From NCBI GenBank assembly GCA_965224085.1, contig CBDCYI010000004.1, positions 1,312,001-1,376,000 of the forward strand: 64,000 nucleotides of DNA, given 5' to 3'. A model generated the notes under the pieces. That model saw only the letters and a list, made by a program, of their open reading frames with translations, ran no database searches and was not told the DNA's origin. The DNA is from Candidatus Marinacidobacterales bacterium. Its GTDB lineage: Bacteria; Acidobacteriota; Vicinamibacteria; Marinacidobacterales; SMYC01. The position numbers and the translations under genes are program-made. Numbering within the stretch: the first letter of the stretch is position 1; each line of letters opens with the position of its first letter. Below, piece by piece: positions 2,522 through 17,929 of the stretch.

Positions 2522-3997
2522 ATGGGTGAGTCTGTGATACCGCTGCTCGCGGTGCTGGCGCCCGCCGTCGGCGCCCTCTTCATCGCCTTCACGGGTGAGC
2601 GTCGCACCAACTTGAGAGAGCTCTGGTCGTTCGCCGCGGGAATCGCGATGCTCGCTCTCGTTGCCAGCATGGTGCCGGAGGTTCTTTTGGGCGGCGGGCC
2701 CGGGATCGTGCTCTTCCGTCTCCTCCCCGGTATCGAGCTCGCGTTTCGCGTGGATGCCTTCGGCCTTCTTTTCGCCATCGGAGCGTCGGTCTGTTGGATT
2801 CTCACCTCGGCCTACTCGATCGGCTACATGCGTACTCTCGAGGAGCACGCGCAGACCCGCTACTTTGCTTGTTTCGCTCTAGCCCTCGCAGCCACTGTCG
2901 GTGTCGCCCTCTCCGCCAACCTCTTCACGCTGTTTCTGTTCTACGAAGGCTTGACGCTGGTCACCTACCCGCTCGTGGGTCATCACGAAGACGCCGAGGC
3001 CAGGGCCGGCGCTCGCAAGTACGTCATTTACCTGCTGGGTGCCGCCAAGGTGTTCCTGCTGGCGGCCATCATCCTGACCTACAACCTCGCTGGGACCCTG
3101 GAGTTTCGCGCCGGCGGCATCCTGCCCGCGGACAAGCTCGCCGAGCACCCCACGCTTTCTCTCGTGATCTTCGCTCTCTTTCTTTTTGGATTCGCAAAAA
3201 ACGCGCTCATGCCGCTGCACAGCTGGCTGCCGGCGGCGATGGTGGCGCCCACTCCGGTGAGCGCGCTCTTGCATGCGGTGGCCGTGGTCAAGACGGGGGT
3301 CTTCTGTACCGTTCGGGTCTTTCTCTTCGTCTTCGGTCCCGACGCCATGCGCGAGATCGGTGCCGATCAAGTCGCCCTGGTGGCCGCCTCGGTGACCATC
3401 CTCGTCGCCTCGCTGCTGGCGCTCAGTCAGGACAATCTGAAAGCGAGGCTGGCCTTCTCCACGGTGAGCCAGCTCTCCTACATCGTCCTCGGAGCAACGC
3501 TCTTGAACGCCAGTGGTGTCATGGGCGGCGTCGCGCATATCACCAACCATGCGGTATCCAAAATCACTCTCTTCTTCTGCGCCGGCTCGATCTACGTCTC
3601 TACCCGCAAGACCGAGATTAGCCAGCTCTCCGGCCTGGCCACGCGCATGCCGTGGACTGTGGCGGCGTTCTCGCTGGCCTCACTGAGCATCGTAGGGATT
3701 CCGCTCACCAGCGGCTTCGTCTCCAAATGGTACCTCGTCCTCGGCGCGGTGGAGCTCGAAAGCCTCGTCGTACTGGGCGTGCTTCTTGGGAGCTCGCTCC
3801 TCAGCGCGGCCTACCTGGGTCCGATCGTCTTCAAGGCCTATTTCGAGCCGGAGCCCCCGAAGAAAAACGACGGCGACGAAATCCGCGAGGTTCCCTGGAT
3901 GGTGGTGCCCCTTTTGATCACTGCCGCCTTTAGCCTGCTCCTGGGCCTCTTTCCCGGACCGGTGCTCGAGTTGGCCGGAAGAGCGATGCTGCCATGA
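2522..3997 (+). CDS. Antiporter-like subunit, MrpD/NuoM-type (extra pumping subunit)
   Basis: Proton_antipo_M features: FLFYE, KNALMPLHSWLPAAMVAPTPVSALLHAV, LKARLAFSTVSQ, GFVSKW. No NuoL-type C-terminal helix. Confidence 0.88.
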   Translation: MGESVIPLLAVLAPAVGALFIAFTGERRTNLRELWSFAAGIAMLALVASMVPEVLLGGGPGIVLFRLLPGIELAFRVDAFGLLFAIGASVCWILTSAYSIGYMRTLEEHAQTRYFACFALALAATVGVALSANLFTLFLFYEGLTLVTYPLVGHHEDAEARAGARKYVIYLLGAAKVFLLAAIILTYNLAGTLEFRAGGILPADKLAEHPTLSLVIFALFLFGFAKNALMPLHSWLPAAMVAPTPVSALLHAVAVVKTGVFCTVRVFLFVFGPDAMREIGADQVALVAASVTILVASLLALSQDNLKARLAFSTVSQLSYIVLGATLLNASGVMGGVAHITNHAVSKITLFFCAGSIYVSTRKTEISQLSGLATRMPWTVAAFSLASLSIVGIPLTSGFVSKWYLVLGAVELESLVVLGVLLGSSLLSAAYLGPIVFKAYFEPEPPKKNDGDEIREVPWMVVPLLITAAFSLLLGLFPGPVLELAGRAMLP

Positions 3998-4257
3998 GCT
4001 TCCTTACGAAACAGCTGGAAGATCCGGTCCGCTTCAAGCGGGTCAAGCTCTGGTTCTACGTCGGCCTGGTCGTGGTCGTTGCGACCGAGATCGTTCTGCC
4101 GCTTGTGTTCCACGGAGGCGACCACCACTTCTCGTTCGAGAGCTGGCCTGCCTGGGGCTCTCTCTATGGGTTGATCTCTTGCGTAGCGATCATCGTGGTG
4201 TCCAAGCTCATCGGAAAAGTGTGGCTGACGCGCCCCGAGGACTACTATGACGATTGA
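3994..4257 (+). CDS. Small 2-TM membrane protein coupled between two antiporter-like subunits
   Basis: 87 aa, two hydrophobic segments, C-terminal RPEDYYDD; overlaps both neighbours. Confidence 0.75.
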   Translation: MSFLTKQLEDPVRFKRVKLWFYVGLVVVVATEIVLPLVFHGGDHHFSFESWPAWGSLYGLISCVAIIVVSKLIGKVWLTRPEDYYDD

Positions 4258-6019
4258 GTGGATCCACCCGGGGCTCATCCTCATTCTGGGCGCCTTTGTG
4301 TTGCCGTTGCTCAGCGGCCGGATCAAGCGCGTCGCCATGGTCGTCCTGCCGGCCGCGGCGGTGGTCGATTGCCTTTTTTTAACGACTCCCGGGACCCATG
4401 GCGAAGTCAGCTTCCTCGGCCAGGAAATGGTGTTCGGCCGGGTGGACAGCCTGAGCCTGATCTTCTCCTACGTGTTTTCGATCATGGCCTTGCTCGGGAT
4501 GATCTACGCGCTCCATGTCAAAGAAGATTCTCAGCACGTAGCTTCCTTGGTTTATGCAGGAAGTGCCCTCGGCGTGACGTTTGCCGGCGACTTCCTCTCT
4601 CTCTACATCTTCTGGGAGCTTTTGGCGATCGCTTCGGCGCTCTTGGTTTTGCTGCGCCGCGAACGAAGTGCGCTTCTAGCCGGGTTCCGCTACCTCTTGG
4701 TTCACGTGTTCGGCGGGCTCCTCCTATTGGCGGGAATTGTGCTCCATTGGGCTCAGACCGGCTCGATCGCCTTCGGGGACATGGGAGACTTCTCGGGCAG
4801 CCTCTCTTGGGGCTTGATCCTCGCGGCCTTTCTCCTCAACGCCGCGGTTCCGCCGCTCGGGGCGTGGCTTCCCGACGCCTATCCCGAGGCCACGGTCACC
4901 GGCGCCATCTTCATGACCGCGTTCACGACCAAGTCGGCGGTCTACGTTTTGATTCGCGGCTTCGCGGGCACGGAGCTCTTGGTGTGGCTGGGCGCCATCA
5001 TGGCGATCTACGGCGTGGTGTACGCGGTGCTAGAGAACGACGCTCGCAGACTGCTGGCCTACCACATCATAAGCCAAGTCGGTTACATGGTCTGCGGCGT
5101 AGGCATCGGGACGGCGCTGGCCCTAAACGGTGCCACCGCCCACGCCTTCGCGCACATCCTCTACAAGGCGCTGCTGTTCATGGGCGCCGGCGCCGTTTTG
5201 CAGATGACCGGGTTGCGAAAGCTGAGCGACATGGGTGGGCTCTACAAGACCATGCCGGTCACACTCGGGCTCTACATGATCGGAGGCTTTGCCATCTCGG
5301 CAGTGCCACTCTTCAGCGGCTTCGTGAGCAAGTCGATGGTGGTCTCCGCCGCCGGCGAGGAACACTTGACCGTGATCTTTCTCATGCTCACGCTAGCCTC
5401 CGCGGGAACCTTCCTGCACACCGGCCTCAAGCTTCCCTACTACATGTTCTTCGGCAAGGACTCGGGGCTCAGAGCCAAGGAGCCGCCCGTGAACATGCTC
5501 GTGGCCATGGGACTGGCCGCGGCCGCCTGCATCGTGATCGGAGTTTTTCCTCGACGCGTCCTCTACCCATCCCTTCCGAACGCCGCGGACTACGTTCCGT
5601 ACACACTGCCGCACGTCACGAGCACACTCGGGATGTTGGCCTTCACAGCGCTCGGTTTCTTCCTGCTGCTCAAGCAGCTCGATCCCGAGCGCACGGTAAG
5701 CCTCGACACCGACTGGTTCTACCGCCGTGGTGTGACGCGTCTCATGAACCTGATCCTGGGTCCCGTGGCACGTCTCGAGTACGGTTACATCGGTGAGTAC
5801 TATGAGCTCGTGATCCGGCGGCCCGTTTTGGGCGCAGCGAGTCTGTTCCAAAAATTCGACAGCCGGGTGGTCGATGCGGCGCTCGTGGGTGTGGGGCGCT
5901 CGACGCGGAGCTTGAGCCAGCACCTCAAGACCGTCGAAAGCGGCCATGTCCAACACTACGGACTCATCATGGCCGCCGGAATCCTGGCTCTAGTGGCCTT
6001 GTTGATGCTCGCCCTATGA
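4247..6019 (+). CDS. Antiporter-like subunit in the NuoL position (MrpD-type core with NuoL-like C-terminal amphipathic helix and terminal TM)
   Basis: FWE, WLPDAYPEA, RRLLAYHIISQVG, GFVSKS; C-terminus FDSRVVD...SGHVQHY plus a TM segment, as in NuoL. Confidence 0.88.
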   Translation: MTIEWIHPGLILILGAFVLPLLSGRIKRVAMVVLPAAAVVDCLFLTTPGTHGEVSFLGQEMVFGRVDSLSLIFSYVFSIMALLGMIYALHVKEDSQHVASLVYAGSALGVTFAGDFLSLYIFWELLAIASALLVLLRRERSALLAGFRYLLVHVFGGLLLLAGIVLHWAQTGSIAFGDMGDFSGSLSWGLILAAFLLNAAVPPLGAWLPDAYPEATVTGAIFMTAFTTKSAVYVLIRGFAGTELLVWLGAIMAIYGVVYAVLENDARRLLAYHIISQVGYMVCGVGIGTALALNGATAHAFAHILYKALLFMGAGAVLQMTGLRKLSDMGGLYKTMPVTLGLYMIGGFAISAVPLFSGFVSKSMVVSAAGEEHLTVIFLMLTLASAGTFLHTGLKLPYYMFFGKDSGLRAKEPPVNMLVAMGLAAAACIVIGVFPRRVLYPSLPNAADYVPYTLPHVTSTLGMLAFTALGFFLLLKQLDPERTVSLDTDWFYRRGVTRLMNLILGPVARLEYGYIGEYYELVIRRPVLGAASLFQKFDSRVVDAALVGVGRSTRSLSQHLKTVESGHVQHYGLIMAAGILALVALLMLAL

Positions 6020-7479
6020 CGGCCTACCCCGTACTCACCGTCGCGACTTTCCTCCCAGTGGTGGGTGCTGCTCTTGTGCTTCTCGGCGGCGAGCAGCGCG
6101 CGCGCTTCATTGCGCTGGCCACTGCCTTTATGACTCTGGCAGCCTCGGCCCCCCTCTACCTGAATTTCGACAAGGCCTCGAGCGGTCTACAGTTCGCAGA
6201 GACGCGAGAGTGGATCCCGTCCTGGGGCATCACTTACGGCATGGGCGTGGATGGCATCAGCGTGCTGTTCATCTTCCTCGCTTCAGTCTTGATCGTCTTG
6301 TGCATCGGAGCCTCTTGGATTGCGGTTGGCACCAGAGCGCGGGAGTTCTACGCTGCCTTGCTGGTCGCGGAAACGGCGATGATCGGGCTCTTTGCCGCAT
6401 CCAACCTGTTTCTCTTTTTCATTTTCTGGGAGCTCATCGTCGTTCCCCTCTTTCTGCTGATCGGCATCTGGGGAGGGGAAAAGCGCGTCTACGCCTCCGT
6501 CAAGTTCCTGATCTTCACGCTAACGGGTAGCGTCTTGATGCTGGTGGGCATGATGGCGCTCTACAACCTTTGCGGCACGATGGACTTCAAGGCCCTCACT
6601 CTCGCCCGAGCGAGCCTTGAGCCGCATCATCAGGCCTGGCTCTTTGCAGCTTTTCTAGCTGCCTTCGCCGTCAAAGTGCCCATGTTCCCGGTGCACACTT
6701 GGCTACCGGACGCCCACACCGAAGCGCCCACGGCAGGCAGTGTCATCCTGGCCGGAATCCTCCTCAAGATGGGCGCCTACGGTTTCTTGCGGGTCTCCAT
6801 TCCGATTCTTCCAGACGGCGTCGAGTTCTTTGTAAAACCCATGCTCGCCATCTCCGCAGTAGCCATCGTCTACGGCGCCTACGTGACGTTGGTTCAGAAG
6901 GACATCAAGCGCCTCGTCGCCTATTCCAGCGTCAGCCACATGGGCTTCGTGACTCTCGGCATCTTCACTCTCGACGAGCGAGGAGTCGAGGGCGGGATCC
7001 TCCAGATGATCAATCACGGAATCGTCACCTCGGCGCTCTTTCTGTGCGTTGGCATGATCTACGAACGCACCCACACGAGAGAGATCAAGGACTATGGTGG
7101 CGTTTTTAAGGTCGCGCCGGTCTACGCGGCATTCTTCGCGCTGTTTTGTTTGGCTGCTGCGGGATTCCCGGGTCTGAATTCTTTCGTGGGGGAGTTCCTG
7201 ATCGTCGGTAGCGCCTTCGAGACCCAGGCTTGGCTCGGCGCGATGGCGATCTGGGGCGTAGCCCTGGGGACCACCTACCTGGTCTGGCTCTACTACCGCG
7301 TGGTGATGGGTGAGACCAACGCGGGGTTGCACGGGCTCGAGCTCGAGCTCAACCCACGCGAGGTGGCAACGCTTTTGCCACTGGCCATCCTCACTGTGAC
7401 TCTCGGTCTCTATCCTGAGCTCGTCCTCTCCTATCTTCGTGCTCCCGTGGCCGAGCTCCTAGCCGGAGTCGTGCCATGA
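6016..7479 (+). CDS. nuoM: NADH-quinone oxidoreductase subunit M
   Basis: GVDGIS, FIFWE, AVKVPMFPVHTWLPDAHTEAPTAGSVILAG, LVAYSSVSHMG, FVGEF. Confidence 0.95.
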   Translation: MTAYPVLTVATFLPVVGAALVLLGGEQRARFIALATAFMTLAASAPLYLNFDKASSGLQFAETREWIPSWGITYGMGVDGISVLFIFLASVLIVLCIGASWIAVGTRAREFYAALLVAETAMIGLFAASNLFLFFIFWELIVVPLFLLIGIWGGEKRVYASVKFLIFTLTGSVLMLVGMMALYNLCGTMDFKALTLARASLEPHHQAWLFAAFLAAFAVKVPMFPVHTWLPDAHTEAPTAGSVILAGILLKMGAYGFLRVSIPILPDGVEFFVKPMLAISAVAIVYGAYVTLVQKDIKRLVAYSSVSHMGFVTLGIFTLDERGVEGGILQMINHGIVTSALFLCVGMIYERTHTREIKDYGGVFKVAPVYAAFFALFCLAAAGFPGLNSFVGEFLIVGSAFETQAWLGAMAIWGVALGTTYLVWLYYRVVMGETNAGLHGLELELNPREVATLLPLAILTVTLGLYPELVLSYLRAPVAELLAGVVP

Positions 7480-8915
7480 GAAGTGTCACCGTCTCTGACC
7501 TGGCCCTCGTCATACCGGAGCTGATCCTGATCGGCACGGCGCTAGCGCTCATTCTTTTCGCGCCTCGCATCCGGCAAGGAACCACCGCCGCCGTCGCGAC
7601 GGTTCTAGCAGCGCTCACCGCCGCTCTGGCCTCGGCCGGGGTCCTGCGTTCGGACACCGTAACAGGCTTCGGAGGAATGATCACCCAGGATGGCTATTCC
7701 GTATTCTTCAAGATTCTGATCGCCTCCGCCTTGGCTCTAGCCGCGCTTCTCTCAGTGCGAAGCACCAAGGAAGACGAAGACGAGGACGAGGACGAGGTTC
7801 CGCGCGGCGAGTATCACGCCCTGCTGCTCCTCGCTTCGACAGGAATGATGCTCGCGGTCTCTACCGTGGATCTGCTGACCCTCTACCTGGGCCTGGAGTT
7901 GATGACCATCTGCTCCTACATCCTCGTGGGGATCCACGTGCAGAGACCGACATCGAACGAGGCGGCGATCAAGTACTTCCTCGTGGCTTCCTTCTCCTCG
8001 GCCCTGCTCCTCTTCGGCATCAGCCTGACCTACGGTTTCGCGGGCAGTACCGACTTCGCCGCCGTGGCGTCGGCCTTTGCTGAGCACGGCACGGCGACAA
8101 GCCCGCTTCTCTTGGCGGCCATCTTGCTGGTGCTGGGTGGCCTGGCCTTCAAGATCGCGGCAGCCCCGTTTCACTCCTGGGCGCCGGACGCGTACCAGGG
8201 TGCGAGCGCACCAGTCGCCGCCTTCTTGGCAGCCGGATCCAAGGCGGCGGGCCTTGCAGCTCTGGGACGCGTGACACTGGTCGCGTACGGCTCGGCGGCC
8301 GAGGTCCTGTCGATGCTTCTGGCCGGTCTCGCCGCTCTCTCCATTGTGGTTGGCAGCATCACCTTGTTGGCGCAGACCGACATGAAACGCCTCTTGGCCT
8401 ACTCCTCCATCGCGCATGCAGGCTACGCCATCCTGGGCCTCATCGCCGGCACTCCCGAAGGGGCGTCGGCGACGATGACTTACGCGTTCTTTTATGTGTT
8501 CATGACTCTAGGCGCCTTTGGCATTGTGATCGCCCTTGGCGAGCGGGGAGCTACCCTCGATGGCTATCGGGGCCTGGCCGCACAGCGGCCCGTCGCGGCC
8601 TCGCTCATGCTGCTCTTCCTATTGTCATTGACGGGGTTCCCTCCAACCGCCGGTTTCGTCGCCAAGTTCGTCGTCATCCTGAGCGCCGTGCGCGCCGGGC
8701 ACGTAGCACTCGCGGTGCTGGCCGTGGCCTGCAGTGTGATATCGGCCTTCGTCTACATGCGCGTGGCCGTGTACATGTTCATGAGGGAGTCCGAGGAGCC
8801 CGCACCGTCACGCTGGCCGGTGGCGGTGTCCGCGGCACTCACGGTGGCCGCGCTGGTCACTCTGATCGGCGGCATCTCACCCGCCACTCTCATGTCCTGG
8901 GCGGTGTCGCCATGA
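7476..8915 (+). CDS. nuoN: NADH-quinone oxidoreductase subunit N
   Basis: GLEL, EAAIKYF, FKIAAAPFHSWAPDAYQGA, KRLLAYSSIAHAGY, GFPPTAGFVAK. Confidence 0.95.
   Translation: MRSVTVSDLALVIPELILIGTALALILFAPRIRQGTTAAVATVLAALTAALASAGVLRSDTVTGFGGMITQDGYSVFFKILIASALALAALLSVRSTKEDEDEDEDEVPRGEYHALLLLASTGMMLAVSTVDLLTLYLGLELMTICSYILVGIHVQRPTSNEAAIKYFLVASFSSALLLFGISLTYGFAGSTDFAAVASAFAEHGTATSPLLLAAILLVLGGLAFKIAAAPFHSWAPDAYQGASAPVAAFLAAGSKAAGLAALGRVTLVAYGSAAEVLSMLLAGLAALSIVVGSITLLAQTDMKRLLAYSSIAHAGYAILGLIAGTPEGASATMTYAFFYVFMTLGAFGIVIALGERGATLDGYRGLAAQRPVAASLMLLFLLSLTGFPPTAGFVAKFVVILSAVRAGHVALAVLAVACSVISAFVYMRVAVYMFMRESEEPAPSRWPVAVSAALTVAALVTLIGGISPATLMSWAVSP
7770..7796 (+). repeat. In-frame (GARGAC)n hexamer microsatellite encoding EDEDEDEDE in NuoN
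   Basis: gaagacgaagacgaggacgaggacgag. Confidence 0.7.
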
Positions 8916-8955
8916 ATATCGGCCGTCCTGTATATTGGCATCGAGGCAATCACCA

Positions 8956-9309
8956 GTGACCGAATATATCGGAATCGCAGTGAGCATCGTCATGGCCGCA
9001 GGGATCACGGGGATGTTGGTGCTTCTGGGCTCTACGCTTGGGAAAAAGAATCCGAGCGCCGTCAAGCTGGCGCCGTTCGAGTGCGGCCAACAACCCTTCT
9101 CCCTGCCGATGGGCAGGTTGGTGATCAAGTTCTATCTCGTCGCGATCCTGTTCATCCTGTTCGACGTCGAGCTCGTCTTTCTCTACCCGTGGGCGGTCGT
9201 GTACCGCACGCTCGGGACCTTGGGCCTGGTCGAGATGGGAGTTTTTCTCGGGGTGCTGATGGTGGGCTTTGTCTACGCGTGGGCCAACGGTGCCCTAGAT
9301 TGGAAATGA
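8956..9309 (+). CDS. nuoA: NADH-quinone oxidoreductase subunit A
   Basis: PFECG, FYLVAILFILFDVE, FLYPWA; GTG start at 8956. Confidence 0.95.
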   Translation: MTEYIGIAVSIVMAAGITGMLVLLGSTLGKKNPSAVKLAPFECGQQPFSLPMGRLVIKFYLVAILFILFDVELVFLYPWAVVYRTLGTLGLVEMGVFLGVLMVGFVYAWANGALDWK

Positions 9310-9324
9310 AGACTGGAAGTGAAT

Positions 9325-9843
9325 ATGCCGGAAATGCCGTCTTTTCTCACAAGTCGACTCGATGAAGCCCTGGGCTGGGCTCGGAAGTTCTCGATTTTCC
9401 AATACCCGTTCGTGACGGCTTGCTGCGGGATGGAGTACATGGCAACGGCCTGCTCTCACTACGATGTCGACCGCTTCGGAGCCGGCCTCCCCAGATTCTC
9501 GCCGCGCCAGTCCGACGTTCTCTTCGTGGTCGGTACGATCAGTCACAAGATGGCTCCGGTCTTGGTGCGCATCCATGAGCAGATGGCCGAGCCCAAGTGG
9601 GTGGTCGCCTTCGGCGTCTGCACCTGCACGGGCGGTTTCTACGACAACTACGCGACCGTGATGGGCATCGATACGGTCATGCCGGTGGACGTCTACATAC
9701 CAGGATGCCCGCCGCGGCCGGAGATGGTCCTCGACGGCCTGATGAAGCTCCAGAACAAGATCCAGAACGAGCGCACGAGCGGCAAGCGGCCGACGCCCGA
9801 AGAGCGCCCGGAGGAGCTATTGAAAGGGCGAATCGAGGTATGA
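9325..9843 (+). CDS. nuoB: NADH-quinone oxidoreductase subunit B
   Basis: TACCGME, SPRQSD, GVC, VDVYIPGCPPRPE (cluster N2 ligands). Confidence 0.96.
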   Translation: MPEMPSFLTSRLDEALGWARKFSIFQYPFVTACCGMEYMATACSHYDVDRFGAGLPRFSPRQSDVLFVVGTISHKMAPVLVRIHEQMAEPKWVVAFGVCTCTGGFYDNYATVMGIDTVMPVDVYIPGCPPRPEMVLDGLMKLQNKIQNERTSGKRPTPEERPEELLKGRIEV

Positions 9844-10424
9844 ATACCTCTTCCCTGATCGAGTCGGTGACCAAGCGCTTTCCCGATGGCGTGTCGGCTT
9901 CCCACAACTACCGGGGCGACGCGACCGTCGTTGTGCGGCCGGGCTCGCTTCTCGACGTGGCTCGCTTCCTCAAGGAAGACCCGGACTTCTCGATGAACTT
10001 CCTCGTGGACGTGACCGCCGTCGACTACTCGGCTTTCGGCAAAGCGCCGGCTCCAGCTTTCTTCGCCTCCTCCGGAGTAGCCGTGACACCCATGTCTCAG
10101 ATTCCGGATCTCGACCCGTGGCCCGGGCCGCCGGACAAAGCGCGCTTCGTGGTCGTCTACCACTTCTACTCGATGGCCAAAAAGCACCGGCTACGACTGC
10201 AGATTCTGATAGAAGACGAAACCTCCCCGGAGGTGGATTCTCTGACGTCGCTCTGGCCCGGAGCCAACTGGCTGGAGCGCGAGGTCTGGGACATGTTCGG
10301 GATCGGTTTTCGCGGGCATCCCGACCTCAAGCGCATCCTCATGTACGAAGAGTTCGAAGGCCACCCGCTGCGCAAGGACTATCCCGTCAGCAAGCGCCAG
10401 CCCCTAATAGGACCCGTCAACTAG
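9840..10424 (+). CDS. nuoC: NADH-quinone oxidoreductase subunit C
   Basis: DVTAVDY, ANWLEREVWDMFG, HPDLKRIL, GHPLRKDYP; ATG at 9840. Confidence 0.95.
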   Translation: MNTSSLIESVTKRFPDGVSASHNYRGDATVVVRPGSLLDVARFLKEDPDFSMNFLVDVTAVDYSAFGKAPAPAFFASSGVAVTPMSQIPDLDPWPGPPDKARFVVVYHFYSMAKKHRLRLQILIEDETSPEVDSLTSLWPGANWLEREVWDMFGIGFRGHPDLKRILMYEEFEGHPLRKDYPVSKRQPLIGPVN

Positions 10425-10426
10425 AC

Positions 10427-11785
10427 ATGACCACGCACACGACTCCCAACAAGGCCGCGCGTCTCGAAACACGGGAAATGATGCTCAACATCGGTCCCGC
10501 ACATCCGGCCATGCACGGCATCGTCCGTCTCGTGACCAGGCTCGAGGGCGAGGAGATAAGAGGGGCCGAAGTGGAGATTGGCTACCTCCACCGCGGCTTC
10601 GAGAAGATGGCGGAAACCGTCGACTATAACGGCGTCATGCCCTACACCGACCGGCTCAACTATGTATCGCCGCTGATCAATAACATGGGCTACTGCATGA
10701 CGATGGAGAAGCTCTTGGGGATCGAAGTCCCTGAGCGCTGCCACTACATTCGGGTCATTCTTTCGGAGATCTCGCGGATCGGGGACCATCTCACCTGCGT
10801 GGGTGCGACCGCCATGGAGCTCGGGGCGTTCACTGTCTTTCTCTACATGATCAAGGCCCGGGAATACCTCTGGGATCTCGTGGAGAAGGTGACCGGGGCA
10901 AGGATGACCGTGAGCTACTGCCGCGTCGGCGGCGTAAAGGCAGACCTGCAGGACGATTTCGCCGAGCCCTGCAAAAAGGCGTTCGTGGAGACCCGCAAAG
11001 TCCTTGAGGAAACGCACGGGCTCTTGACGCGCAACCGCATCTTCACCGATCGTATGAACGGCACCGGGGTGATTTCCGCCGAAGACGCCATCTCTTACGG
11101 GATCACGGGCCCCTTCCTTCGCGCCACCGGCGCGGAGTACGACGTCCGCAAAGACTGCCCGTACGCTGTCTACGATCGCCTGCCCTTCGACGTGCCGGTA
11201 GGGACCCGAGGCGACAACATGGATCGCTACCTCGTCCGCATGGAAGAGATGGAGCAGTCGATACGCATCGTGGAGGCCGCTCTTCGCGACCTGCCACCTG
11301 GACCGGTGCTGACCAACCCGGAAACCGGGCGCCCGATCCCCGCCGCCGAGATGGTCGACCTCGCCAAGGTGGGGAACATCGACGCCATCTCGGGCGGTTG
11401 CGCCGTCGCCGGTCCGACGCTCGAAGGTTCCGGTCGGGCTCAGCATCCGTCGATTGCAGCGGACCAGAAACAAGTCTTCCTGCCGGCAAAGGAGGACACC
11501 TACGGGAACATCGAAGGGCTGATGCAGAATTTCAAGCTGGTCATGTACGGCCACGGCGTGCGGGCGCCGAAGGGTGAGGTCTATTTCCCGGTGGAAGGGG
11601 CCAATGGGGAGCTGGGGTTTTACGTCGTGAGTGACGGAAGCGGAGGGCCCTACCGATTGCGTTGTCGCCCGCCCTGCTTCGCCATCATGTCGGCGCTGCC
11701 CATACTCCTCGAGGGGGACATGGTGTCCGACCTCATTCCTACTTTCGGCTCAGTGAACATGATCGGTGGGGAGCTCGACCGTTGA
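10427..11785 (+). CDS. nuoD: NADH-quinone oxidoreductase subunit D
   Basis: NIGPAHPAMHG, GYLHRG, DRLNY, EGANGELG, GELDR; no NiFe CxxC motifs. Confidence 0.95.
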   Translation: MTTHTTPNKAARLETREMMLNIGPAHPAMHGIVRLVTRLEGEEIRGAEVEIGYLHRGFEKMAETVDYNGVMPYTDRLNYVSPLINNMGYCMTMEKLLGIEVPERCHYIRVILSEISRIGDHLTCVGATAMELGAFTVFLYMIKAREYLWDLVEKVTGARMTVSYCRVGGVKADLQDDFAEPCKKAFVETRKVLEETHGLLTRNRIFTDRMNGTGVISAEDAISYGITGPFLRATGAEYDVRKDCPYAVYDRLPFDVPVGTRGDNMDRYLVRMEEMEQSIRIVEAALRDLPPGPVLTNPETGRPIPAAEMVDLAKVGNIDAISGGCAVAGPTLEGSGRAQHPSIAADQKQVFLPAKEDTYGNIEGLMQNFKLVMYGHGVRAPKGEVYFPVEGANGELGFYVVSDGSGGPYRLRCRPPCFAIMSALPILLEGDMVSDLIPTFGSVNMIGGELDR

Positions 11786-13575
11786 AACTGTCTGATCTCG
11801 AAGGCAAAGCTGCGGAGATTCTCGAGCGCTACGAGTACCCCAAGGCGGCCATGCTGCCTCTCTTGTGGCTCGTTCAAGAGCATCAAGGCTACGTCGCACC
11901 GGACGCAGAGGACTGGGTCGCAGGTATCTTGGGAGTGTCCCGCTCCAAGGTGCGCGAGGCCGTCTCCTTCTACAACATGTTCCACACCAAGCCGGTGGGC
12001 CGGCGCGAGCTCCGCGTCTGCACGAGCTTGCCGTGCATGCTGCGCGGCTCCGGCAATCTGCTCAATCGAATCGAGAAAGCGTTGAACATCCGCCCCGGCG
12101 AGACCACCCCTGGGGGCGAGGTGACCCTCACCGAAGTCGAGTGCTTGTGCGCCTGCGAAATGTCGCCCATGGCTCAACTCGACGAACGCTTCGTCGGTCC
12201 TCTCGAAGGCGAAACGGTCGGCATGATCGTCCACGACGCGCTGACAGAGCCCGCTAGCCCGGAGTCGACCCCGGAGCCCACGCCCTACATCTCTACGGAT
12301 GGGCCGGTGCTTTCTCTGCACTTCGAGAATCCCGATGGGACATGGATGGATAGCTACGTGGCCGATGGCGGGTACGTCGCGGCCAAGAAGGCACTCACCT
12401 CGTTGACGCCGAAGCAGGTGACCGACGAGGTTCTTGGTGCCAATCTACGCGGACTGGGCGGCGCAGGGTTCCCCACCGGTAGGAAGTGGTCGTTCATCCC
12501 CGCGGACACGGACAAGCCAAAATACCTCGTTGTCAACGCCGACGAGGGCGAGCCCGGTACCTTCAAGGACCGCTACCTCATGGAGCGCGACCCACACGCG
12601 CTGCTCGAAGGCATGCTTATCGCCGCTTACGCCATCGACTGTCACAAAGCCTATGTCTATATCCGCGGTGAGTACTTCCGATCGGCACATCGCCTACAGC
12701 GCGCCATCGACGAGGCCCACGAAAGCGGCTGGCTTGGCAAGGACATAAAGGGGACGGGTTTCGATCTGGATGTCGTCATCCACCGCGGCGCGGGGGCGTA
12801 CATTTGCGGCGAAGAGACGGCGCTTCTGACCTCGCTCGAAGGGGGGAAGGGCTTTCCACGGCTCAAGCCCCCCTTCCCTGCGATCTCGGGTCTCTTCTCC
12901 TGCCCTACGATCGTTAATAATGTTGAGACCCTGTGCTGTGTGCCGTTCATTCTGCGCCAAGGAGTCGATCGATTCAAGGAGATCGGCACCGAGACTCAGG
13001 GCGGCACGCGTCTGTTCTGCGTCAGCGGGCACGTGGTCACGCCCGGCGTCTACGAGGCGCCGGTCTCTATCACACTACGAGAGCTGATCGAGAGGGCCGG
13101 TGGTATCCGCGACGGCAACCAGCTCAAGGCCGTTATCCCCGGAGGCATCTCGGCCAAGATCCTGACCGCCGATGAGATCGACGTTGCCATGGACTTCGAT
13201 TCCCTCCGCGCCGCAGGCACCATGGCCGGGTCCGGAGGTGTCATCGTCATGGACGATACCACGTGCATGGTGGAGGCGCTGGCGTCGGCCGCCAAGTTCT
13301 TCGCGGACGAGTCGTGCGGACAGTGCTCGCCGTGCCGTGAAGGAACCGGCTGGGTACTTCGTATCGTGCACCGCATCCTCGAAGCGCGGGGGAAGGTTCA
13401 GGACCTGGATGACCTGCTCGCCATCGCCGGCGACATGGAAGGAAAGACCATCTGCGTTTTCGCGGATGCGGCCGCATGGCCGGTGCAATCCTACATCGTG
13501 AAATTCCGGAGCGAGTTCGAGGAGTACATCCGCACGGAGCGTTCCATCCGAAGCACCCAGGCCGCCCATGCCTAG
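11782..13575 (+). CDS. nuoEF: Fused NADH-quinone oxidoreductase subunits E and F
   Basis: N-terminal NuoE ligands CTSLPC/CLCAC, then a Pro/Thr/Glu linker, then NuoF motifs GGAGFPTG, NADEGEPG, YICGEET, CGQCSPC...C. TTG start overlaps the nuoD stop. Confidence 0.93.
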   Translation: MKLSDLEGKAAEILERYEYPKAAMLPLLWLVQEHQGYVAPDAEDWVAGILGVSRSKVREAVSFYNMFHTKPVGRRELRVCTSLPCMLRGSGNLLNRIEKALNIRPGETTPGGEVTLTEVECLCACEMSPMAQLDERFVGPLEGETVGMIVHDALTEPASPESTPEPTPYISTDGPVLSLHFENPDGTWMDSYVADGGYVAAKKALTSLTPKQVTDEVLGANLRGLGGAGFPTGRKWSFIPADTDKPKYLVVNADEGEPGTFKDRYLMERDPHALLEGMLIAAYAIDCHKAYVYIRGEYFRSAHRLQRAIDEAHESGWLGKDIKGTGFDLDVVIHRGAGAYICGEETALLTSLEGGKGFPRLKPPFPAISGLFSCPTIVNNVETLCCVPFILRQGVDRFKEIGTETQGGTRLFCVSGHVVTPGVYEAPVSITLRELIERAGGIRDGNQLKAVIPGGISAKILTADEIDVAMDFDSLRAAGTMAGSGGVIVMDDTTCMVEALASAAKFFADESCGQCSPCREGTGWVLRIVHRILEARGKVQDLDDLLAIAGDMEGKTICVFADAAAWPVQSYIVKFRSEFEEYIRTERSIRSTQAAHA

Positions 13576-15208
13576 CCTGAGCCGCTTGACCATTGACGGC
13601 CGCGAGATCACCGTTCCCGAAGGAACCACGGTCATCCAGGCGGCGGAGCAGCTCGGGATCTTCATTCCTCGCTACTGCTACCACCCCGGCCTATCGATCG
13701 CCGGCAACTGCCGCATCTGTCTCGTCGAAGTCGAGAAATCCCCCAAGCTGGAGATCGCCTGCAACCTGGCGGTTCGGGAGGGGATGGTCGTGCACACCCA
13801 GAGCGACGAGGCCGAGGACGGGCGCCGGTCCGTGCTGGAGTTTCTCCTCGCCAACCACCCGCTCGACTGCCCGGTCTGCGACCAGTCCGGTGAATGCGAC
13901 CTGCAGAACTTCTACATGAACTTCGGGCTCTACGACCCGAGGTTCCGGGAGCAGAAGGTCAAGAAGAAAAAGGCCGTGGAGCTAGGCCCCCATGTGATGC
14001 TTGACCAGGAGCGCTGTATCCTGTGCTCCCGCTGTGTGCGCTTCACAGACGAGATTACCGAGACCGGTGAGTTCGGCATCTTCAACCGCGGCGACCGGGC
14101 GGAGCTTGGGATCTATCCTGGTGAGGTGCTCGACAATCCCTACTCGGCGAACGTGGTGGACATCTGTCCGGTCGGCGCCCTAACCGAGAAGGACTTCCGC
14201 TTCGCGGCCAGGGTCTGGTACCTGTCGAGCGCCCCAACCGTCTGCAACGGCTGCAGTCAAGGCTGCAACGTCGATCTACACTTCGTGCTCGACAGGCCTC
14301 ATCTGAACGACGGGGCTAGGCTCGTGCGCATCAAGCCCCGCTACAACCCGGACGTCAACCAATGGTGGTTGTGCGACGAGGGGCGCTACGGCTTCGGCTG
14401 GCTGGATCAGGCACGGATCACGAAAGTGCGGCAGGGGCCGGCGGCGGACGGAGCGAACGGAGATGCAACCTGGGAGCAGGCCCTCACCGCAATCTCGATG
14501 ACCCTGGCGGAGTTGGACAAGGGCCGGATCGCCGTGATGGCCTCGGCTCAGCTCACCAACGAAGAGCTCTTCCTGATCCGAGAGATTCTCCAGAATTCCC
14601 TGGGAGCCCGAGTCAGCGCCTCCGTTTCAGACAAGCCCGGCTCGGCCGACGACTTTCTCATCAAGGGCGACAAGAATCCCAACACTCGGGGAGCGACGCT
14701 GTTGGGTTTGGCCGGCCCCGAGGCACCGGATGCCGAACAGATCATGGACGAGGCCGCCTCTGGGAACCTCGGTGCCCTATGGGTCTTCGGGCACGATCTG
14801 GTGGAGCTCTTTGGCGAGGAAAGAGTTCGGGAGCTCGCAAAGAAAGTGGGTCTCTTCGTCTTGTCGGGCACCAACGACAACGCGACCGTGCCGTTCGCCC
14901 ATTGGGTACTGCCGAGCGCCGCCTACATGGAGAAGGATGGCACCTTCGTCAACTGTCACGGCCGCGTCCAGCGCATCGGCCGGGCCTTCGCACCTCTCGA
15001 GGACGCGCGTGAGGATTGGCGCGTTCTCCTGGATTTAGCCGGGCGGTTGGGTCAGTCGCTGAACTGGCGCGGACCGCAAGAGATCTTCGACGGCTTGGCC
15101 AAGGCGTCTAGCCTCTTCGGGGGATTGAGCTACGACGCCATCGGCGCGCAAGGGGCTGACATTACGACAGCCGCTCCCGCTACTGAGCTTGACGCGGTCG
15201 AGCCATGA
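13568..15208 (+). CDS. nuoG: NADH-quinone oxidoreductase subunit G (short form, 546 aa)
   Basis: GNCRIC, HPLDCPVCDQSGEC, CILCSRC, DICPVGAL, CNGCSQGC...C. Confidence 0.93.
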   Translation: MPSLSRLTIDGREITVPEGTTVIQAAEQLGIFIPRYCYHPGLSIAGNCRICLVEVEKSPKLEIACNLAVREGMVVHTQSDEAEDGRRSVLEFLLANHPLDCPVCDQSGECDLQNFYMNFGLYDPRFREQKVKKKKAVELGPHVMLDQERCILCSRCVRFTDEITETGEFGIFNRGDRAELGIYPGEVLDNPYSANVVDICPVGALTEKDFRFAARVWYLSSAPTVCNGCSQGCNVDLHFVLDRPHLNDGARLVRIKPRYNPDVNQWWLCDEGRYGFGWLDQARITKVRQGPAADGANGDATWEQALTAISMTLAELDKGRIAVMASAQLTNEELFLIREILQNSLGARVSASVSDKPGSADDFLIKGDKNPNTRGATLLGLAGPEAPDAEQIMDEAASGNLGALWVFGHDLVELFGEERVRELAKKVGLFVLSGTNDNATVPFAHWVLPSAAYMEKDGTFVNCHGRVQRIGRAFAPLEDAREDWRVLLDLAGRLGQSLNWRGPQEIFDGLAKASSLFGGLSYDAIGAQGADITTAAPATELDAVEP

Positions 15209-16299
15209 TCGAAATCCTGGCCATAAAGGTCGCTCTGGCGGGAATGGTCTTTCTCGCGGTCCTGAATCTGGCCGGGTTTCATACCTGGGTGGAGCGCAAG
15301 CAGTCAGCCCTCATCCAGGACCGCATCGGGGCCAACCGCGCTAGCATCTTTGGCTTTCGGGCGCTGGGACTCTTCCATGGCCTCGCCGATCCGATCAAGA
15401 TGTTCACCAAGGAGGACATCGTCCCGACCGGAGCGGACAAGGTCCTCCATACTCTGGCCCCGTTCTTCTCGGTCTTTTTCGCCTTGGTGACCTTTGCCGC
15501 GATTCCCTTCGGTGACCAGCTCATCCTTTTCGACCGCGTCATCGACCTGCAGGTGGCTAAAATCAACGCGGCGCTGCTCTACGTCTTCGCCATGCTCTCC
15601 CTCGGAGTCTACGGCGTGATCCTCGCCGGCTTCGCTTCGCGCAACAACTACGCGATCATGGGCGGGCTGAGAGCAACCGCGCAGATGATCTCGTATGAGA
15701 TTGCTCTGGGCATCTCCATCGTCGGCGTGATCATGGTCTACGGGACCATGGACCTGGCCGAGCTGGTGCGGGCCCAGGGATACATGATCGGCGGGTGGAT
15801 CCCGATGTGGGGAATCGTCACCCAGCCTGTCGCTTTCATCGTCTTTTTGACCGCGGCCCTCGCTGAGACCAAAAGAGTCCCCTTCGACCTACCGGAAGCA
15901 GAGTCGGAGATCATCGGGTACTTCGTCGAGTACAGCGGCATGAAGTTCGGAATGTTCTTCCTCACCGATTTCCTCGAGACCATCGTGGTGGCGTGCCTCG
16001 CAACGACCCTCTTCTTCGGCGGATGGCAAGTGCCCTTCCTCTTGCCGGACGGCTTCCACTTCCCCTGGGGAGGAGAGCTCCAGCTCGCCAACTGGTTCTA
16101 CGCGCTCCTCGGAGTGACGAGCTTCTCGATCAAGGTCTTGATCTTCTGCTTCGTGTTCATGCAGATACGATGGACCCTGCCGCGCTTCCGCTACGATCAG
16201 CTCATGAGCCTCGGCTGGAAAGGGCTCTTCCCGATCGCAGTGGCCAACACCGCGCTCACCGCAGTCGTGCTAGTTATCTTCTTCGGGGAGAGCACCTGA
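15205..16299 (+). CDS. nuoH: NADH-quinone oxidoreductase subunit H
   Basis: ERK, DRIG, ADPIKMFTKE, AQMISYE, RVPFDLPEAESE, PRFRYDQL. Confidence 0.96.
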   Translation: MIEILAIKVALAGMVFLAVLNLAGFHTWVERKQSALIQDRIGANRASIFGFRALGLFHGLADPIKMFTKEDIVPTGADKVLHTLAPFFSVFFALVTFAAIPFGDQLILFDRVIDLQVAKINAALLYVFAMLSLGVYGVILAGFASRNNYAIMGGLRATAQMISYEIALGISIVGVIMVYGTMDLAELVRAQGYMIGGWIPMWGIVTQPVAFIVFLTAALAETKRVPFDLPEAESEIIGYFVEYSGMKFGMFFLTDFLETIVVACLATTLFFGGWQVPFLLPDGFHFPWGGELQLANWFYALLGVTSFSIKVLIFCFVFMQIRWTLPRFRYDQLMSLGWKGLFPIAVANTALTAVVLVIFFGEST

Positions 16300-16928
16300 T
16301 GGCCGTCAAAGTCGTCCGCAGGCCTGAGCTGACCTTCTGGGAGAAGACCTATCTCCCCCAGATCCTCTCCGGCCTCAAGATCACCTTTTCGCACTTCTTC
16401 CGTAACCTCTTCCTCCATATCGCCCACCTCTTTGGCCGTCTCCTGCATCTTCGCGCCAGCGCCACCATCCAGTATCCCGAAGAGCTAAGGCCACTCATGT
16501 CGAGGTACCGAAGCCGCCACCGACTCACCGTACGCGAGGACAACACCCCGCGCTGTGTGGGCTGCATGCTCTGTGAGACGGTGTGTCCGGCCAAATGCAT
16601 CACCATCGTGCCGGACGAGCACCCAGACCCAAACGTCGAGAAGTACCCGATCCGCTTCGACATCGACCTGGGCGTCTGCGTCTATTGCGGATACTGCGTC
16701 GAGGTCTGCCCTGAGGACGCGATCCGCATGGACACGGGAATCCTCGACCTAGCCGCCTACTCGAGGGAAGCCATGCGGCTCGATATCCATGAGCTGATGG
16801 ACCCATCGCTGCGCAAACCGATCACCGACTGCAGCCTGGACTTCCCGCACCAGTGCGCGCCGACAGGGGGAAAGATGAAGGGCAGCTGGAGCGTCGACAG
16901 GGCGCAAACCGAGTCTGTAGAACGATGA
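16299..16928 (+). CDS. nuoI: NADH-quinone oxidoreductase subunit I
   Basis: TIQYPEE; two ferredoxin motifs, CVGCMLCETVCP and CVYCGYCVEVCP. Confidence 0.95.
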   Translation: MAVKVVRRPELTFWEKTYLPQILSGLKITFSHFFRNLFLHIAHLFGRLLHLRASATIQYPEELRPLMSRYRSRHRLTVREDNTPRCVGCMLCETVCPAKCITIVPDEHPDPNVEKYPIRFDIDLGVCVYCGYCVEVCPEDAIRMDTGILDLAAYSREAMRLDIHELMDPSLRKPITDCSLDFPHQCAPTGGKMKGSWSVDRAQTESVER

Positions 16929-17929
16929 GCCGCCTACATCTGGCCAAGGAGATCATGGTGACGAAGCTCGTCACCGTAGGTCCGGAAGACGACGTGCTAT
17001 GGGGCATTGGTCGACTTCTTGACCGTCGCATCAGCGGCGCCCCAGTGGTCGGTAGCGGCCGGCGCTATCTCGGCATGCTTTCGGATCGCAGTTGCATGAA
17101 AGTCCTCTACGAGACGGCTCGCGAGGCTCGGGTGGAGACGATCCATCTTCCCCAAGCGCGCGCGTTCATGTCGAAGAAGCTCTTCACTCTGAGCCCGGAA
17201 ACCGACGCCATCGAAGCGATCTCGAGGCTGCTCAAGCAACGTTTCTCGGGGGCTCCCGTCGTCAACGAGAAGGGGAATTTTTTGGGGGTCTTCTCCGAAC
17301 GCTACATCATGCGATTGCTGATCAACTCGGCCTACGAGCAGGTACCGTCCACCCGAGTGGACGCGTTCATGAACACGGACCGCGGCCGACTGATTGAAGG
17401 GACAATGGACCTTCTCGAGGTCGCTCGGATGTTCCACGACACGTATTACCGGCGGCTACCCGTCATGAAGGACGGAAAATTGATCGGCCAGATCAGCCCG
17501 TTCGACGTTCTCAGTGCCGAGCATCACCTGGCCCGCTCCGTCAAGGGTCGCTGGCGGAGCCTGCTGGACCATCGTCTGGTACGGACCCTCGCCGAGCTAT
17601 GGCGTGGCGGCGGAAAGCCACCTTCGATGCAGATCTCCCAGTTCATGGACACCTCCGCCGAGACGATCGAGGAGGACTTGGATCTCCTGGCGATCGCCAG
17701 AATCTTCCTCGACTCCAACCGTCGTCGCCTCCCGGTTCTGCGCGAAGGCGAGCTGGTCGGCCAGATCAGCCGCCGCGATCTACTGCACGAGGTGCTCGAC
17801 CTGCTCTCGGAACAACCGCACCGCGAGCGACCCGGCCTATTCCTGAGCGCTGTCACGAACCCTGCTGAGAACCCGATCTTGCGGGACAGTCAACATCCGA
17901 GCGCCGGATCGTCGCAGCACCGCTCCTGA
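16925..17929 (+). CDS. Four-CBS-motif protein, translationally coupled to nuoI
   Basis: ISGAPVV, FSGAPVV, YRRLPV..GQIS, RRRLPV..GQIS; ATGA overlap with nuoI. Confidence 0.88.
   Translation: MSRLHLAKEIMVTKLVTVGPEDDVLWGIGRLLDRRISGAPVVGSGRRYLGMLSDRSCMKVLYETAREARVETIHLPQARAFMSKKLFTLSPETDAIEAISRLLKQRFSGAPVVNEKGNFLGVFSERYIMRLLINSAYEQVPSTRVDAFMNTDRGRLIEGTMDLLEVARMFHDTYYRRLPVMKDGKLIGQISPFDVLSAEHHLARSVKGRWRSLLDHRLVRTLAELWRGGGKPPSMQISQFMDTSAETIEEDLDLLAIARIFLDSNRRRLPVLREGELVGQISRRDLLHEVLDLLSEQPHRERPGLFLSAVTNPAENPILRDSQHPSAGSSQHRS

Follow-up and report, generated by a model that had tools for sequence, protein, structure and literature searches.

A lengthened, apparently mosaic transverse helix on the MrpD2-type subunit of a probable green complex I from Candidatus Marinacidobacterales

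The window, the whole stretch of 64,000 nucleotides analysed here, carries an operon that we assign, with a probability of about 0.78, to a green complex I in which an mrpD1-orf-mrpD2 cassette replaces nuoL, the MrpD2-type subunit forms the far end of the membrane arm and a composite transverse helix, longer by one subunit-width, braces the arm. The sequence, spans, gene content, tail type and residue identities on which this reading draws were observed directly. The operon type and the rule of about 26 helix residues per subunit are already in print and the finding is a rediscovery; what is added here is a measured series of helix spans, a mosaic origin for the brace, a spread of the family beyond rhizobia and a residue pattern suggesting that the fourth antiporter-like subunit is no normal pump. 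That pattern bears on what determines the number of protons moved by complex I, and the split between pumping and bracing is testable in rhizobia.

Matches to NCBIfam and Pfam families gave the operon order nuoJ, nuoK, mrpD1-like, an 87-aa ORF, mrpD2-like, nuoM, nuoN, nuoA, B, C, D, a fused nuoE-F, G, H and I, all on the forward strand, with a single nuoM and no nuoL. nuoJ (1665-2210) and nuoK (2207-2512) are followed by an MrpD1-type antiporter-like subunit of 491 aa (2522-3997), which scores 645 bits against PRK08375.1-1, just below the cutoff of 663, and lacks a C-terminal helix. A small hydrophobic ORF of 87 aa (3994-4257) leads into the MrpD2-type subunit, which occupies the NuoL position (4247-6019, 590 aa). 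nuoM (6016-7479) and nuoN (7476-8915) score above cutoff against TIGR01972 and TIGR01770, and family matches identify nuoA to nuoI (8935-16928), the starts of nuoC, D, E-F and I being internal ATGs picked by hand. The nuoE/nuoF fusion lies at 11782-13575, and a CBS-domain gene (16925-17929) follows nuoI; the nuoI of Ensifer also adjoins a CBS gene. GC content runs from 0.59 to 0.65 with no compositional step at the locus. The position of the 87-aa ORF is the same in Ensifer and in most GTDB loci listed (best 80 of 571 matches), and it is kept between mrpD1 and mrpD2 in complex I operons and Mrp operons alike; family profile searches and blastp against the reference set assembled here returned no convincing family for it.

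The MrpD2-type protein scores 731.5 bits over aa 2-583 against NF009310/PRK12668, above the curated cutoff of 564, and fails the canonical NuoL models (PRK06590, 177 against a cutoff of 556; TIGR01974, 159 against 407.5). The PRK12668 model, of length 584, already covers long-tailed members. We use the names MrpD1 and MrpD2 after PMC9040806 and number TM15 and TM16 by analogy with NuoL. The earlier note had described a span of 78 aa from DWFY to the SG preceding HVQHY, and this was confirmed as aa 489-566 (nt 5711-5944); it holds two successive helix-start-like motifs, DWFY at aa 489 (nt 5711) and GEYY at aa 516 (nt 5792), the second lying 51 aa from the same Gly. The equivalent span of E. coli NuoL, given in that note as about 50 aa, measures 48 aa from DWLY (aa 542) to ENG in NC_000913.3, and nine canonical NuoL proteins (E. 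coli and eight from plasmid-collection records, of which the Komagataeibacter row aligns poorly) give 48, 51, 51, 53, 51, 52, 53, 51 and 51. An insertion relative to canonical NuoL is present, and the excess of 25-30 aa, or 27 relative to the usual 51, agrees with the 26-28 residues first estimated.

Sequence and structure place the start of this helix differently. In sequence register the D-x-L-Y motif of NuoL pairs with GEYY and not with DWFY: aa 514-588 (from nt 5786) match positions 536-611 of the 615 in PRK06590 with no net gap (E 8e-8), and the register is repeated in alignments to the Paracoccus and Thermus chains 8qby_L and 4he8_L. Two AlphaFold models, built from alignments of 47 and 34 sequences, were superposed on E. 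coli NuoL; the superpositions report alignment end-points only, at residues with pLDDT of 52-69, and these fall at model residues 507-509 on chain residues 560-562 for model 1 (rmsd 2.9-3.1) and at 510-512 on 560-561 for model 2 (rmsd 2.5-2.8). The resulting offsets of 49-53 place D489 at E. coli 538-542, within about 4 residues of E. coli D542, whereas a GEYY start would need an offset of 26, and structure therefore favours DWFY as the helix start. The two anchors would be reconciled by a NuoL-type transverse helix of the usual length (aa 516-566, 51 aa, nt 5792-5944) set 27 residues downstream of a Mrp-type start, the extra unit (aa 489-515, nt 5711-5791) beginning at the D-x-D-W-F-Y-R anchor. 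With 26-27 Mrp-type residues ahead of a complete NuoL-type helix, the whole would be about one subunit-width longer than that of NuoL, in line with the proposal that the additional length corresponds to one antiporter subunit.

The models predict helices at aa 489-541 and 551-564 (model 1) or at 490-511 and 514-562 with a break at aa 512-513 (model 2), at a low pLDDT of 41-69 across the transverse helix. TM15 (aa 454-473, nt 5606-5665) is helical in both and lies within the range superposed on NuoL, and both place TM16 after the transverse helix at aa 567-589 (nt 5945-6013); together with the superpositions and the profile match they suggest that TM15, the transverse helix and TM16 of NuoL are all present in MrpD2. 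The added segment, which had been expected to form an amphipathic helix, is thus helical in both models, and the hydrophobic moment of aa 489-566 is 0.44 against 0.31±0.05 in shuffled sequences (p=0.003), with an alpha-periodicity peak at 95 degrees. By itself the extra unit gives p=0.068; across 34 homologues, which are related and hence not independent, its z score is above 0 in 34 of 34 and above 1.64 in 25.

We surveyed the family by a GTDB scan that gave 77 loci, from the best 80 of 571 confirmed matches; three plasmid loci and the window bring the total to 81 loci. Of their 88 MrpD2-type proteins, 45 have a complex I context, 27 an Mrp context and 16 no assigned context, and as the loci are related these counts are not independent. 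Within this set (best 80 of 571) a NuoL-type tail, scored with a profile of eight NuoL tails, occurs in every one of the 45 copies with complex I context, at 28.8-61.7 bits, and in none of the 27 Mrp-context copies, which reach at most 2.5 bits. The span is 76-79 aa in 41 of the 45, three could not be parsed and a Manganitrophaceae copy (L029) measures 103, while the distance from anchor to NuoL motif is 25-27 residues in 44 of the 45 and 52 in L029 (best 80 of 571). Spans accordingly form a series with steps of about 26, from Niallia MrpA (25) through NuoL (48-53) and complex I MrpD2 (76-79) to L029 (103), and these steps match the +26 aa that PMC9040806 gives for the complex with five subunits; the L029 contig stops in its first nuoM and five subunits were not seen there. 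The span of Shinella MrpA came to 42 in a poor and unreliable alignment. The anchor Asp (D489) is present in 127 of 135 aligned family rows, and the distance from anchor to last TM, in the 124 rows where it was measurable, is 50-64 residues in 58 and 80-89 in 33. The extension is a trait of the whole complex I-context family and no peculiarity of the window gene; an insertion specific to the window was ruled out by the same length in rhizobial and other homologues.

The family extends past rhizobia into Acidobacteriota, Thermodesulfobacteriota, Verrucomicrobiota and others (best 80 of 571). Nearest to the window MrpD2 in the core tree are Vicinamibacteria loci, L080 at 82 % and also L044 (best 80 of 571), and another Vicinamibacteria match reaches 87 %. 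Among plasmid records 98 of 118 matches cover at least 80 % of MrpD2, those listed being about 58-60 % identical.

From the lengthened helix it had been argued that the fourth subunit is really incorporated. The lengthened helix does go together with four antiporter-like genes in all 30 complete operons, the other 15 running off contig ends (best 80 of 571), but length alone is no proof of incorporation. MrpD2 copies from Mrp operons, mostly of three subunits, have tails of 77-148 aa with variable inserts after the NP motif (best 80 of 571), so helix length is no strict ruler outside NuoL-type tails, and we rejected it as a universal ruler of subunit number for Mrp-type tails. Insertions of 26 aa are also described in PMC9040806 for Manganitrophaceae complexes of canonical gene content, so that an insertion need not be accompanied by an additional gene in the same cluster.

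Several other arrangements were recorded within the family. A separate PRK12668-family clade (P0231, P0191, P0245, P0230, P0223, P0254 and P0165) has NuoL-type tails of 100-231 aa, which would mean far longer arms if length tracked subunit number, and an Actinomycetes MAG copy (L012:184-2196) with a 187-aa tail is followed on its 4.4-kb contig by unrelated genes. In Desulfobacteraceae-like MAGs (L007, L008, L009, L016 and L041) the Mrp operons hold two tandem pairs of small ORF and MrpD2 with tails of 105-106 and 122-124 aa. Methanophagales copies (L013:9974-11860, L017 and L025) occur singly or as tandem copies, and neither Mrp nor nuo genes were detected in their vicinity; that of L013 lies downstream of ribosomal protein genes. 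Archaeal MrpD1-MrpD2 fusions of 1085 and 1007 aa (L055:4804-8061 and L040:9635-12658) have N, B, C, D, H and I-like genes downstream of them. A Desulfocapsa operon (L063) runs K, M, D1, small ORF, D2, N, again with a span of 77 aa.

The suggestion in the earlier note that the gene is a chimera of an MrpD-type core and a NuoL tail, with a breakpoint near 5790, is supported by the PRK12668 core, the ungapped NuoL match of aa 514-588 and the tail's restriction to complex I-context copies. In sliding windows the mean local score at aa 489-515 is 37.9 with the copies from Mrp operons and 23.4 with NuoL, and at the C-terminal end 43.8 to NuoL against 24.6 to the Mrp copies. These scores support a predicted switch from Mrp-type core to NuoL-type tail at about aa 500-515 (nt 5745-5790), a loose breakpoint since windows at aa 501-563 are near background against both groups. 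In a core tree (best 80 of 571; L040, which has no tail, left out) the 87 MrpD2 cores and the 10 NuoL/MrpA rows are split by a branch with SH-aLRT 100. Under midpoint rooting the complex I label requires three changes, and short-tailed Mrp copies stand beside long-tailed complex I copies at two places (L014; L038, L043 and L079). Recombination is the simplest reading of the tail's origin. It is unlikely in our view that the tail instead grew by duplication of an internal Mrp helix unit and came to resemble NuoL by convergence on contacts with NuoM, N, J and K. Such an origin would suit the weak NuoL likeness of the middle of the tail in pairwise scores and the repeated gain of 26-aa units in NuoL reported in PMC9040806, yet the NuoL and NdhF profiles are matched gap-free over 75 residues and Mrp-type tails carry no NuoL signal (best 80 of 571). 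Between the extra unit and the one that follows it, 2 of 27 residues and 29 of 81 bases are identical, figures on which we rejected a recent tandem duplication as the source of the two motif units.

In complex I the TM15-bearing subunit is terminal. As MrpD2 has TM15, the order of subunits is probably MrpD2, MrpD1, NuoM, NuoN. The mrpD1-orf-mrpD2 cassette, as found in three-D Mrp antiporter operons, would have taken the place of nuoL, with MrpD2 as the outermost subunit of the membrane arm, carrying TM15 as NuoL does. Its helix, made of the first 26-27 residues of a Mrp-type helix and then a whole NuoL-type helix, would span MrpD1, NuoM and part of NuoN before TM16 anchors it at the site of NuoL's TM16. 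Alternatively, MrpD1 could lie at the distal end or be loosely attached, with MrpD2 where NuoL ordinarily sits, the helix then starting at GEYY and the DWFY unit being a Mrp leftover folded on MrpD2; this would fit the pairing of GEYY with the NuoL motif by sequence methods, the break in model 2 and the residues of MrpD1, which are those of a terminal NuoL/MrpA-type subunit. We consider it very unlikely, however, since the superpositions set aa 489-510 on the first half of the NuoL helix, TM15 by analogy with NuoL would lie on the distal face and the unit is doubled to 52 in L029. According to PMC8165549, helix length goes with the number of subunits. The fourth subunit is probably braced; we infer that a fifth proton does not follow.

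Pairwise and multiple alignment show that MrpD2 has Asn198 (nt 4838-4840) where the TM7 ion-pair Lys (E. coli NuoL K229, B. pseudofirmus MrpD K219) would stand. The Asn is found in 45 of 45 complex I-context and 26 of 27 Mrp-context copies (best 80 of 571), with the Lys retained in 22 of 62 short-tailed representatives. By residue mapping the uptake triad of MrpD2 is Arg-Gly-Tyr/Met, and the TM7 Lys and TM8 His motif of NuoL, taken from PMC4938563, is absent (N198 and M223); the second half is intact (H299, H303, K307 and K362). MrpD1 carries the NuoL/MrpA-type charged set E142/K226, K307-S247-H251 and K402, the first two elements invariant in 34 of 34 (best 80 of 571). The window NuoM has the triad K298-S242-H234, Lys-Ser-His being present in 42 of 42 NuoM (best 80 of 571), and NuoN has an inactive-type Tyr at the junction. 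The same mapping recovered the E. coli positions K305, K312, K295, H248 and H254 given in preprint 10.64898/2026.10.08.757549, in which the ion-pair Lys is essential and the proton count is set by active uptake paths. By this yardstick our alignment points to two active-type paths, as in Paracoccus, despite four subunits, and MrpD2, being without TM7 ion-pair Lys and uptake triad, need not be a fourth pump. Literature searches, which were aimed elsewhere, found nothing on the TM7 Asn, and we claim unpublished status for neither the Asn nor the extension.

A tentative reading, at slightly less than even odds, is that the roles of NuoL have been split, MrpD1 with the pumping residues serving as a NuoL-type pump inside the arm and MrpD2 as a non-pumping brace and perhaps exit adaptor (or a Na+ route). 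If true, four antiporter-like subunits would have only two active uptake paths (MrpD1 and NuoM), a natural experiment that parts subunit number from H+ per NADH and for which tractable Sinorhizobium strains exist. With odds likewise somewhat short of even, all four subunits may be true pumps, MrpD2 moving H+ (or Na+) by a modified axis so that more ions are moved per NADH than in canonical complex I. This possibility, as proposed for 2M and green complexes, is compatible with the brace architecture and differs in function; it draws on MrpD2 E124, K229, H299, H303, K307 and K362, kept in 45 of 45, and on an extra His273 invariant in 34 of 34 (both best 80 of 571), and PMC9040806 puts forward a count of 5 to 6 ions for complexes of this kind. 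N198 in place of the TM7 Lys and the Arg-Gly-Tyr/Met triad count against it.

Section 10 of PMC9040806 defines green complex I as having two MrpD-like subunits instead of NuoL, and the Fig. 4 and Fig. S2 alignments of that paper might already display the green-complex span; the accessible part of PMC12361115 does not mention green complex I. The window operon has nuoL replaced by two MrpD-like subunits, begins with nuoJ-K and carries A-G after N. It is syntenic with that of Ensifer canadensis pT173d and shares with rhizobial green complex I the two MrpD-like genes for nuoL, the order J K D1 orf D2 M N A B C D E F G and an MrpD2 about 59-60 % identical with a span of 77 (Ensifer) against 78; it differs in its fused nuoE-F and Vicinamibacteria-type relatives, and nuoH and I, inverted in Ensifer, both follow nuoG on the same strand in the window. 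Complex_I_3 of Ca. Manganitrophaceae (PMC9040806) shares the MrpD1/MrpD2 cassette and NuoL-type tail but has five subunits and a further 26-aa insertion (103 in L029), which the window MrpD2 lacks, its operon having one nuoM. 2M complex I, as papers citing Chadwick et al. 2018 describe it, likewise has four antiporter-like subunits and a helix about 26 aa longer, but its lengthened subunit is a true NuoL and its nuoM is duplicated, whereas the window has one nuoM, no nuoL and the brace on an MrpD-type core. The PRK12668 subunit of three-D Mrp operons (E F G B B C D D D) has the same core, D-x-D-W-F-Y-R anchor, adjoining small ORF and usual TM7 Asn, but a tail of variable length that is not of NuoL type, and MrpB/C/E/F/G partners. 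Lastly, MbsH' of the Pyrococcus MBS (6u8y_X) is a comparable MrpD-like core bearing TM15, helix and TM16, according to PMC8165549, although its helix is short, serving two subunits, and its TM7 Lys is kept.
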